From Spirochaetales bacterium (GTDB lineage Bacteria; Spirochaetota; Spirochaetia; Treponematales; UBA12059): 45,813 nt of DNA. The notes beneath the pieces are model-generated. The model was not told where the DNA came from. It worked only from the letters and a program-made list of their open reading frames with translations, and searched no databases. Location of the stretch: positions 1-45,813 of the forward strand of contig JAFGJV010000012.1 of assembly GCA_016928955.1 (NCBI GenBank). Direction: 5' to 3'. Both the position numbers and the translations under genes were made by a program. Shown in pieces: positions 42,226 through 45,813 of this stretch (its first letter is position 1; the number at the start of each line of letters is the position of its first letter).

Positions 42226-43221
42226 TCAATCGAATACGTCGTCTATTTTCCGGATCATGAAATCCATGATGCCATAGACGCTGTGTACGCTTCCGTCCTC
42301 AGACATGAAACAGCCGAAGCTCCGGAGGAAATATTGGGTCTTGGAGGAAGGGGCGGTTTCTTCACTGTGATAGGCCAGCATGGAGTCGCTGATGACGAAT
42401 ACAATCGTCTCGCCGGAGCCCGTGGTGACGAGGGCTGAATTTGTCATGGTGTTGAGTCTGGGATTCCTGGTGCTCTGGGCCAGGAATCCGATGAATCGTT
42501 TCAGTACGCTGTCCTCTCCAATGGCTTTGAAGCCTGACAGCGTGTCCACCCAAAGACGGTTTGTAAAAGCTAAGTCGTAGTTGAAGCTTGTGCCGCTCGG
42601 CTTGGGTCCCTCGATGGGAAATGCTACCAGGTCATCCACGTCCTCGATCGGAAAAAAGGACAGGTAGTCTAGCGTCCCTGTTTCCATGAGCCACATGCCA
42701 GGGTAGAGGAAAACGTCATCCACCCCCGGCAGCGTGCCGGCGCCGCGACCCCCGGCCAAGGCCAATACGTGAACGTTGAAATCGCCCACCGTGAATACCA
42801 CGATCTTCACATCCTTGCCGGCGTTGAAAGGCAGTTCCTCATTGGCCATAGTGCCGATATCCTGACTCACCGTGACCTTGTCGCCAGCCTCAACATGATC
42901 AGGCACGCGAACATTCGCGTAAAGGACATAAAACACGCTTTCCAGTTCACTGCCGCCAAGGTAGTATGTCGAGGATGATTTCACGACGATACCTCCGCCA
43001 AAAACGCCGTGGAACTGGTCGCCAGAAAATACGGCTTCGACCGTCCCGGAGCGTAGCGGCTTCAAGGTATCGAAGGATATCCCGAAGGATATACCGTCGA
43101 CGCCTTCCTGGTTTTCGACCATGAAGTCGGCTATCCTGCCGAGGCCGTCTGCGGCGCTCGATTGGGCCGCGCAATACGCGGCGGCGAGGATGGCCATGCA
43201 GGCAACAAAGGCTCGTTTTAT
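42226..43221 (-). CDS. Secreted hypothetical protein with degenerate M23/LytM-like segment (start uncertain)
   Basis: Signal-like (I)KRAFVACMAILAAAYCAA; YVLYANVR...VEAGDKVTVSQDIG resembles the M23 core without its His ligand. Candidate starts: ATG 43263, ATA 43221, ATG 43197. Confidence 0.6.
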   Translation of the reverse strand: MKRAFVACMAILAAAYCAAQSSAADGLGRIADFMVENQEGVDGISFGISFDTLKPLRSGTVEAVFSGDQFHGVFGGGIVVKSSSTYYLGGSELESVFYVLYANVRVPDHVEAGDKVTVSQDIGTMANEELPFNAGKDVKIVVFTVGDFNVHVLALAGGRGAGTLPGVDDVFLYPGMWLMETGTLDYLSFFPIEDVDDLVAFPIEGPKPSGTSFNYDLAFTNRLWVDTLSGFKAIGEDSVLKRFIGFLAQSTRNPRLNTMTNSALVTTGSGETIVFVISDSMLAYHSEETAPSSKTQYFLRSFGCFMSEDGSVHSVYGIMDFMIRKIDDVFD

Positions 43222-43287
43222 GGGTGTCTCCGTGAGGGGCGAATCCCTTGAGTATAATCGCATCTAGTGCTTTTCGGAATCCCTATT

Positions 43288-43394
43288 GGGAACCTCTAAA
43301 ACCCCCATGGGTATTAGAGGTTCCCTGCGTTTTCGGCGGAAAACACAGGGTTTCTAAGGTAACCCTCTAAAAACTGAAGTTTTTAGAGGCTCCC
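43288..43394. repeat. Composite palindrome cluster (REP doublet/BIME- or MITE-like)
   Basis: Hairpin 43288-43325 (12-bp perfect arms GGGAACCTCTAA/TTAGAGGTTCCC), linker hairpin 43323-43350, hairpin 43364-43389 (11-bp perfect CCTCTAAAAAC/GTTTTTAGAGG); the outer ends of the whole unit are also inverted repeats. Confidence 0.8.
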
Positions 43395-43606
43395 TTTTGT
43401 AAATTTCGAGCAATATGGTAAAACTAATTGCGTATGCTTATATTACTAGGCGATGTTTCTTATCATAGTGTGTATTGTTGCTTGTACTGATCTGGAAAGA
43501 AGCATGGGAAATTATGAGAGCTATGTGAGTGTGCTTTGAATAGAGTCGTCGATGCAGCAAAGGGTTATACTGTAATTATTAGCAGAAGCCGGGGGCGCAT
43601 TAAGAA

Positions 43607-44140
43607 ATGCCAATCATAATCGCTATTCTAGCATTCGCGGCGCAGTTTTTAGTTAAAGAATAATATGGTTCCTTTATTTCGCTATTCGGAATGGTATTTC
43701 TGTGTGCTGTAATTCATTATGCGAAACCTGATGTTAGATTTAATAAACTTAGTTTTATATTGGCGCCCTTTTTTGTTTTGGCGGTCGACGCGTCAAATTA
43801 CTTGATTTCTGGCAGCTATTTTCCAACGATAGGTCTTTTTGTGGCAGCTTTCATAGAAGAAGTGGTGTATAGATTCTATCTAGATGATGAGTTGTCAAAA
43901 TATCATAGCAGCGGGTGCTCGGGAATGATCTCTCTAGGAGTTTTCTTACTCATTCATGTACCCAAATATTTGGACAGACTTCAGTCTTATCTTATTTTAG
44001 GTTTTGCGACAACCTTTTTTCTTTATTACAAACGTAAGACAAGAGATTTGATGCTGGTCAGCATACTCCATTTTGGTTTCAATTCATTTCTCATGTTATT
44101 TCTATTGCCAATTGTTGAATTCATTCTTTATGGATCATAA
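43607..44140 (+). pseudogene. CPBP family (CAAX/Abi) intramembrane protease, in-frame TAA at codon 19 (or truncated product from ATG 43691)
   Basis: FIEEVVYR, FLLIH and LHFGFN motifs; upstream in-frame MPIIIAILAFAAQFLVKE*YGSFISLFGM with TAA at 43661-43663. Confidence 0.7.
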
Positions 44141-44235
44141 GACCAAGATTTGTTCGTTGTTAATATATAGGGCCGGAACCATATTAGAAGCCAAGGAGTA
44201 TCATGATTGGAGCCTCTATGCAAAAGCGAAAAACT

Positions 44236-44266
44236 TTGACAAATTTCCCCAGGTGGCGAATATTTT
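44236..44266 (+). promoter_or_regulatory. Possible promoter of the peptide gene (TTGACA ... TATTTT)
   Basis: Perfect -35 at 44236-44241; -10-like TATTTT at 19-nt spacing (suboptimal); AAGGAG SD at 44275-44280. Confidence 0.4.
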
Positions 44267-44286
44267 TAATGTCCAAGGAGAAGCGT

Positions 44287-44658
44287 ATGAAAAAGCTGTT
44301 GCTGTTGTTGGTTCTGGCGCTCTGCGCCGGGCTGGGGCTGTGGGCCCAGGAGGCCGCCGTGGATCCCTTTGCTGCCATCGAAGCGGAGGAGCTCTGCGCC
44401 GAAGAGATGAAAATGGTTCAGGGCGGATTGCCGCGTAGGGCTGGAGATGTCACCATGTCTATTGATGGTGTGTCAGGTGGGTACCTGAATCAGTGGCAGG
44501 CGAATTTGCATAGCGGGTATAACACTGGAGATGATTATTACCCGGCATCTACAGCAAAAGAAAGACGAAAAGAAATAAAAAAAGTTATTGGTATTACTAG
44601 GTATGTCCTGAATTTTTGGGACAACTTGCTTGGCGGAATCTCTGAAGAACTCGAATAA
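44287..44658 (+). CDS. Secreted precursor: Sec signal, acidic double-glycine-type leader and 76-aa core (bacteriocin/peptide-signal-like), 123 aa
   Basis: MKKLLLLLVLALCAGLGLWA|QEAAVDPFAAIEAEELCAEEMKMVQGG|LPRR...; strong SD; followed by a terminator; CPBP genes on both sides. Confidence 0.8.
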   Translation: MKKLLLLLVLALCAGLGLWAQEAAVDPFAAIEAEELCAEEMKMVQGGLPRRAGDVTMSIDGVSGGYLNQWQANLHSGYNTGDDYYPASTAKERRKEIKKVIGITRYVLNFWDNLLGGISEELE

Positions 44659-44666
44659 TTAGCCTG

Positions 44667-44697
44667 CTACTGGCAAAGCCATTTGCTTTGCCAGTAG
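44667..44697 (+). terminator. Intrinsic terminator-like hairpin
   Basis: 13-bp perfect stem CTACTGGCAAAGC/GCTTTGCCAGTAG, 5-nt loop, followed by TCTTCAATTTT; begins 8 nt after the stop. Confidence 0.75.
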
Positions 44698-44841
44698 TCT
44701 TCAATTTTACTCACATCGACAGCGGTATGCTACAAAAATAAAAGCACTGTAGCTGTTGACAACTCGCATTTGCGGTTTTTCAACATCTTGTTGCTATAAG
44801 TGAGAGGGGGGCATGAGAAGTGCCCCCGTTGGTGGTGAAAA

Positions 44842-45573
44842 ATGGATGATTTCTTGAAAAAACTATTAGGGAATTCAGTAGGCCGGGCAGGAGTTATTTT
44901 ACTTATTAATACCATTCTACTTTTTTTGCTAGTCCTAGGTGCTAAGCTATCCAAAAAGAAAGCATTCTTTCGCGGTTTGTGCATCGTTTTATATAACATA
45001 GTGCTTTCTGAATTCATCTATACAGCAATAATAGCGTTTGTCAATTATAATTACCAAAAATGGCTGGTTGGGCAGTTTTTAGTCATGATCTTTCTTGGGC
45101 TTTTACAGTCAAGTGTGATTTATATGTCATATTGCTTATTTCAAAAGGCAATAGGTGTTAATGTTGGAAAGAATTTATTGAACTCAATGGTGGTGAAAAA
45201 AGGTGATTTATTTCCTATGGTAAAGAGTTTGATTTTTCCGTTGATTTATCTGGTGGTCTTTATCACTGCGAGAGGCCGGCATCGTATTGTATTAGAACCT
45301 CTACAAATCGTCAACTTGGTCGTCCTAACACCAATAATCGAAGAATTCATATTCAGGTTTTCGATACCGCAAATGCTCAAAAAAGAAAAACTTGCGTTGG
45401 GATACATTTCTATTTTGTCAATTGTCTTCGCGCTTCTCCATCCTGCGGACGCGAAGTTGTTTGCCCTATTTTTTTCAATGTATGTGTATTCTGTTTATAA
45501 TAAAATCGGCAAATTAAGCGCAACAATAATTATCCATAGTATTTCGAATTTTGTGTACGTTTATTGGATGTAG
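44842..45573 (+). CDS. CPBP family (CAAX/Abi) intramembrane glutamic protease
   Basis: PIIEEFIFR, FALLH and IHSISN motifs; multiple TM helices. Confidence 0.88.
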   Translation: MDDFLKKLLGNSVGRAGVILLINTILLFLLVLGAKLSKKKAFFRGLCIVLYNIVLSEFIYTAIIAFVNYNYQKWLVGQFLVMIFLGLLQSSVIYMSYCLFQKAIGVNVGKNLLNSMVVKKGDLFPMVKSLIFPLIYLVVFITARGRHRIVLEPLQIVNLVVLTPIIEEFIFRFSIPQMLKKEKLALGYISILSIVFALLHPADAKLFALFFSMYVYSVYNKIGKLSATIIIHSISNFVYVYWM

Positions 45574-45576
45574 ATT

Positions 45577-45813
45577 ATGACTACCAAAACAACAAAACTT
45601 AGCTTTGTAGAAACACGTTATATGCAGGTGAAAAAATGTAATTCACGCGTAAGCGCAAGGCTAATTGGAACTCTTGGGGCGGTCTGTCTCGCGCTCACGC
45701 TCGAAATAGCTCTACAGTGGATTTATGGTGAGATAGTCAATCGTAACGAGACCTGGTTGTACGAGCATTGGTCACCTTTTGTCTGGGATAACTACGATTT
45801 CCTCCGGGAACTC
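45577..45813 (+). CDS. Partial membrane protein (open to window end)
   Basis: ATG 3 nt after the CPBP stop; frame MTTKTTKLSF...LIGTLGAVCLALTLEIALQW...DFLREL stays open to 45813; not in the ORF track. Confidence 0.55.
   Translation, partial: MTTKTTKLSFVETRYMQVKKCNSRVSARLIGTLGAVCLALTLEIALQWIYGEIVNRNETWLYEHWSPFVWDNYDFLREL

Follow-up and report, generated by a model that had tools for sequence, protein, structure and literature searches.

Near the end of the window (the whole 45,813-nt stretch of Spirochaetales DNA analysed here), a small gene for a putative secreted peptide lies between two genes of the CPBP (Abi) membrane protease family. How would such a peptide leave the cell, which enzyme would remove its leader, and what are the CPBP proteins for? 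The preliminary description of this DNA proposed a Sec-exported, double-glycine (GG) precursor bracketed by CPBP proteases, which would either take off the leader outside the cytoplasm or give immunity to the peptide.

The precursor gene and its setting

The precursor ORF (44287–44658; all features are on the + strand unless stated) encodes 123 aa, made up of a signal-like segment, a GG leader and a 76-aa core. Residues 1–20 (44287–44346) are predicted to form a Sec-type signal peptide, with a hydrophobic N-terminus (KD 9-mer value 3.62) and probable cleavage after A20. Residues 21–47 (44347–44427) make up an acidic pro-segment that ends in the GG motif and serves as a conserved family tag. 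This leader is in canonical register (L-12, E-8, M-7, V-4, G-2 and G-1, the last two being G46-G47). The translation and the register thus bear out the three-part layout read earlier, and together with the hydrophobic N-terminus they argue for a Sec-type signal ahead of the GG leader. The core has two parts, a G/N/Y/D-rich linker (residues 48–85, 44428–44541), common to precursors with other tips, and a swappable amphipathic helical tip (residues 86–123, 44542–44658), presumably the active part. The core had been described as ending in a basic, amphipathic helix; this holds for the tip, whose hydrophobic moment is 0.56, but the core as a whole has a net charge of -1. Searches of Pfam and NCBIfam with the precursor gave only sub-threshold leader matches, no toxin domain was recognisable in the core with Pfam, and the ESM Atlas returned nothing at 0.9 or above.

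The gene has its own expression signals, as first reported. A Shine–Dalgarno element read from the sequence, AAGGAG (44275–44280), stands 6 nt ahead of the ATG, and a 14-bp hairpin with a T tail (44666–44698), a likely terminator, separates the precursor from the partner gene behind it. A hairpin 3' of the precursor was also seen in eight of the nine loci folded. The sigma-70-like promoter match at 44236–44264 (10/12) is weak, with 11 such sites against 7.2 ± 2.7 in shuffled sequences.

Past 43200, GC content drops from ∼0.57–0.70 to 0.36–0.44, and this low-GC island reaches the end of contig C23, which is also the end of the window. Its left edge is marked by a dispersed palindromic repeat of ∼115 bp with inverted arms (43288–43402, no strand assigned), outside the system proper. 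This REP- or MITE-like element has dozens of copies on many contigs of the same genome (G000), several of which end in it. Adjoining the island is a 345-aa ORF (42226–43263, - strand) with a signal-like start, a weak M23-like match (E 0.23) and a GC content below that of the genome.

The stretch is present in metagenomes from sediment, freshwater, sludge and wastewater (22 runs, four of them compared with the window). Contigs from these environmental runs did not extend the sequence past 45813. All four runs show a rise in depth at the leader; this value is summed over organisms and gives no copy number. Contigs of RNA run X7 span parts of the precursor and of the CPBP gene behind it, which is no demonstration of transcription.

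A leader family with exchangeable cores

Eight homologues of the precursor were found among 90 candidates, and four of these are ∼90% identical to it over residues 1–47 only, with unrelated tails. A leader profile built from three sequences matched in 13 of 42 family genomes, ten of which hold true precursors; a 14-sequence profile retrieved 65 cluster representatives at E ≤ 1e-3. Because the leader recurs in these 65 representatives, and once more in its own genome, it is not a chance resemblance. L36, E40 and G46 are invariant across the 14 aligned leaders, and a 20-residue hydrophobic segment precedes the GG leader in every one.

The preliminary description had suggested a leader-profile search of spirochaete genomes and a tally of C-terminal diversity. 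The GG-type motif is present in 57 of the 72 proteins examined, the other 15 being fragments, variants or false matches. At P1, these 57 leaders have G (30), E (14), D (10) or S (3). The 54 cores of at least 25 residues, some of them from loci that had gone into the profile, fall into 36 BLAST clusters. Moreover, the window core is a mosaic. P0004, P0005, P0016 and P0017 have its initial ∼38 residues joined to other tips, and a contig of run X3 departs from the window at 44544, the border between linker and tip. Only two of 60 precursors have a Pfam match over cut-off, one to an M23 peptidase (E 2.7e-17) and one to a YkuD domain, both known enzyme domains; the remaining 58 have no match. From a reading of their sequences, many other cores appear glycine-rich and hydrophobic, resembling microcins.

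When 401 genomes sampled across the phylum were searched with the leader profile (cut-off 1e-5), matches came from the precursor's own family only. This search understates the range of the leader, since it scored no more than 16 candidates in each genome, and a search that started from C39 peptidase genes (below) gave divergent leaders in other families.

Two further loci show other cargos. At L038:2984–3894 (G020), a precursor with a 114-aa core is followed, without a hairpin between them, by a soluble 134-aa protein; the pair resembles a cytoplasmic toxin–immunity pair and has no Pfam or NCBIfam match. At L045:2501–4339 (G004), the order is YkuD-like cargo, lipoprotein, then C39 and barrel genes.

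CPBP partners and the putative export genes

Both ORFs that flank the precursor match PF02517 above cut-off, as the first reading had it. The downstream gene, CPBP2 (44842–45573, 243 aa, E 7.3e-12), has the three catalytic motifs of the Abi/Rce1-like family intact (EExxxR, FxxxH and HxxxN) and probably encodes the cognate immunity protease; it matches best the CPBP that accompanies the related core P0005. The upstream gene, CPBP1 (43607–44140, E 2.8e-11), is broken by an in-frame TAA at 43661–43663. Base 43663 is C in runs X3 and X4, giving a sense codon, while X2 carries the same base as the window, which makes the stop a strain allele; the study behind X2 also produced the possible source run, so X2 is not fully independent. 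CPBP1 is 34% identical (E 2e-28) to the CPBP behind a different core in G065. The further membrane ORF noted downstream is indeed there, cut by the contig end (45577–45813), and is 37% identical over 54 aa (E 3e-13) to L037:1469–1630, which follows a P0006-type core. Since CPBP1 and this last ORF match partners of other cores, neither of which is present in the window locus, both are probably orphan immunity genes. Upstream of CPBP1, a search for a remnant core gave nothing convincing (best E 0.003).

The neighbour counts do not support bracketing by CPBP genes as what defines the family. We listed the gene directly behind 19 precursors (that of the window, 16 in nine family genomes and two on metagenome contigs), and it is a CPBP in nine, called by Pfam for five and by motifs for the rest. 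Other direct followers include small membrane proteins, DUF5658-like and DUF3267 proteins, the soluble 134-aa protein, a lipoprotein, the C39 gene itself and an interrupted cassette. In G007, seven precursors stand in tandem, each with one partner gene. The catalytic motifs are intact in all ten CPBPs tested, and in both cases where two cores resemble each other, their CPBPs do so too (scores 405 and 201). There are counter-cases: two CPBPs of G007 score 202 and CPBP2 scores 177 against a CPBP of G036, yet the cores are unrelated in each case. Covariation of core and CPBP is thus partial and, at this small sample size, only suggestive. Still, that other cargos have other partners and similar cores have similar CPBPs fits cognate immunity, the second option of the preliminary description. 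Apart from these loci, the window genome has two more tandem CPBP genes (C24:4047–5035), where the profile found no leader ORF.

The constant neighbour of the leader is instead a gene for a stand-alone C39 peptidase, with one for a FapF-like barrel. In seven of the nine other leader-bearing family genomes, a stand-alone C39 lies in the precursor locus; on contigs that extend past it, the barrel gene comes next and usually then one for a lipoprotein. The two exceptions, G007 and G064, have precursors with no C39 found; a barrel fragment and the lipoprotein remain in G064, and G007 has a lipoprotein fragment at a contig start and no barrel found. These family counts of co-occurrence are not independent, the profiles having been built from the same genomes, so we rely on adjacency and on a class-level search for C39 genes. 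This search matched 25 of 401 class genomes at 27 places, and 20 places were taken (the window's own genome was set aside, as were two frames of ABC length and four short contigs). The profiles found the leader at 4/20, the barrel at 6/20 and CPBP at 2/20. After removal of one 2.8-kb contig, ORFs were listed for 19 loci, and an upstream ORF with signal and leader was seen in ten (four by HMM, six by pattern or eye), including one array of three cassettes; in the other nine there was no precursor within 4.2 kb. These counts argue that C39 and barrel, not CPBP, accompany the leader.

The family C39 frames are short and match PF03412 over cut-off. The FapD and FilB models also match, FapD with a score well short of its cut-off (26.6 of 330 bits). 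All six C39 N-termini compared have a short hydrophobic stretch, often with no basic n-region, and a periplasmic location of the enzyme is uncertain. The barrel matches PF13557 over cut-off. Its predicted model (pLDDT 71.7) has the FapF fold: the ten best Foldseek rows are all FapF, with that of Pseudomonas first (E 1.8e-12, TM ∼0.67).

Pseudomonas Fap and Neisseria nap are the closest known systems, and the family is neither an ABC-exported GG bacteriocin system nor a Fap amyloid system proper. As described for Fap (PMC5557850), it would combine Sec-exported substrates, a stand-alone C39 and a FapF-fold barrel, here predicted. In that account FapD is periplasmic and its cysteine is needed for secretion, with its target left open. 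Unlike the Fap substrates described there, the cargo here is short and polymorphic, has a canonical GG register and comes with a partner gene each time; the spirochaete loci have an extra lipoprotein of ∼125 aa, and the barrel, of ∼280–290 aa, is modelled without a long N-terminal coiled coil. No match to the FapB/FapC amyloid-repeat family was found in the window ORF or the 60 precursors.

The nap locus (PMC11798529), with the C39 peptidase NapP, NapF, the GG peptides NapABC and NapI, shares with these loci a low-GC island, GG peptides, a putative immunity gene, a stand-alone C39 and a FapF homologue. Its main text mentions no signal peptide and suggests a holin for passage across the inner membrane, although the Nap sequences, given in the supplement, may show signal peptides. 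The peptides of nap, as described there, are small and fixed and cause autolysis instead of killing, and neither CPBP genes nor cassette arrays are described. Class II bacteriocins and microcins with Abi (CPBP) immunity, for example SkkI, PlnI and PlnL, resemble the family in GG register, hydrophobic or amphipathic cores and an adjoining Abi-family gene (PMC8538875). According to the same source, Abi-family proteins give cognate immunity, suggestedly by proteolysis, and in class II bacteriocins the leader is N-terminal and an ABC exporter removes it with its C39 domain; in the present family, it lies behind a signal peptide instead of at the very N-terminus, and no C39-ABC was found in the window genome, where the single PF03412 match is a stand-alone C39. 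Treponema denticola TepA and TepB (PMC4947327) are likewise GG-leader peptides of a spirochaete, described with type I export by C39-ABC plus HlyD, whereas the present family appears to use Sec plus a barrel.

Polymorphic toxin systems (Zhang et al. 2012, PMC3482391) offer another parallel: a conserved N-terminal trafficking part, a variable C-terminus, and both adjacent and orphan partners, with the adjacent partner here changing with the cargo. No Sec/C39/barrel route is described where that paper names C39, CPBP, spirochete or Treponema, and 'double-glycine' has 0 occurrences in the 300,000 characters of it that were searched.

Proposed function, alternatives and the window strain

We think it reasonably probable that the cassette works like a polymorphic toxin–immunity system on Fap-type export. 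Sec would bring the precursor to the periplasm, where signal peptidase would take off residues 1–20. To judge from register and gene linkage, a stand-alone FapD-like C39 would then read the acidic leader and cut after G47. The core would exit through the FapF-like outer-membrane barrel, perhaps helped by the conserved lipoprotein, and would harm neighbouring bacteria. The gene behind the core, here CPBP2, would guard the producer, probably by degrading the core. Recombination within the conserved leader and at the linker/tip border would swap cores, as the mosaics indicate, and leave orphan immunity genes behind. This chain as a whole, from Sec export to immunity by CPBP2, we hold to be somewhat better than an even bet. 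It agrees with the earlier proposal of a bacteriocin-like core freed of its leader outside the cytoplasm, which we count as supported. Against the chain stand the P1 residues, with G in 30 leaders only, unusual for C39, as well as the 58 precursors with no Pfam match, the two genomes with no C39 and the nine C39 loci with no precursor.

More broadly, and more tentatively, with the odds as we see them falling just short of even, this would be a two-step polymorphic-effector pathway of Spirochaetia, not previously described. In it, a tandem Sec and C39 leader (P1 G/E/D/S) would send peptides resembling microcins, and cell-wall enzymes as well, along a path of periplasmic C39, FapF-fold barrel and lipoprotein, with the Fap channel acting as a general toxin exporter and CPBPs as a diversifying immunity repertoire. 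No description of such a polymorphic system was found in the literature searched, which comprised the main texts of openly available papers. If the pathway is real, competition between bacteria is a further use of the Fap 'hybrid' amyloid exporter, and spirochaetes gain a polymorphic toxin system not found in that literature. Dozens of natural leaders would then allow a test of which substrates periplasmic FapD-type C39 peptidases accept. Many cognate core–CPBP pairs would be on offer to probe how Abi proteases give immunity, and the family would be a pool of candidate antibacterial peptides.

What, then, is the state of the system in the window strain? The window itself has no C39 gene, as first reported, but the genome has one, a stand-alone 137-aa frame at the end of contig C59. 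It stops early, lacking the conserved DP motif and the last third, and a leuS-like gene comes directly after. No barrel or lipoprotein was found in this genome, and no overlap joins the end of C23 to another contig, C59 included. With the CPBP1 stop, the truncated C39 and no barrel found, the locus looks decayed. The cassette is probably not exported in this strain, barring a second copy of the machinery in an assembly gap, and with export genes that seem defective, the locus may by now be chiefly a store of immunity genes. These defects would also suit a dead remnant with no present role. We consider this a real but lesser possibility: the precursor and CPBP2 are intact, and close relatives in X3 and X4 keep the arrangement with an open CPBP1 codon. 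A dead locus in this one strain would also be compatible with the toxin–immunity reading for the family. Shortened C39 or barrel genes, and a cassette interrupted by an IS, recur at L039:2913–3173, L044:2211–2483, L021, L145 and L146, so decay of the export genes seems common.

The main caution for a toxin reading comes by analogy from nap, the nearest described locus with C39, FapF and GG peptides, where the peptides drove autolysis and showed no antimicrobial activity against competitors (PMC11798529). The cores might likewise be self-directed peptides, or strain-specific signals, exported by the same Sec/C39/FapF-like route and processed or quenched by CPBP; most cores match no known toxin family, and that of the window is not cationic overall. 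Conflict is a better fit for the M23 and YkuD cell-wall enzyme cargos, for tandem arrays with one partner each and for orphan partner genes, and no sensor or regulator was noticed beside the cassettes in the loci viewed, which were not scanned systematically. We therefore regard a signalling or self-directed role as unlikely. A structural role, as surface or matrix subunits of the Fap amyloid or Fil filament type diversified against phages or predators, is more improbable still. FapD/FapF-like machinery, matches to the FilB and, weakly, FilC models and the G/N/Y-rich linker would suit it, but the cores are short and mutually unrelated, have no match to a Fap repeat family, and as structural variants would not need a dedicated membrane partner each. 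Least credible is the idea first favoured, that CPBP proteases take off the GG leader outside the cytoplasm: CPBP motifs are intact and CPBP2 is the only intact linked protease in the window strain, but ten of the 19 precursors lack a directly following CPBP, the CPBPs diverge strongly although the leader is kept, and the leader is in exact C39 register beside a constant C39 gene.

Related arrangements occur at further loci. Loci L067–L071 of genus g11 have a similar upstream ORF and lipoprotein, with no match to the leader profile. In other families, L136, L140, L143 and L144 have, beside C39, a distinct cargo of ∼200 aa with a common 'HCDIIA' motif, followed by one or two signal-bearing partner genes of ∼255 aa.
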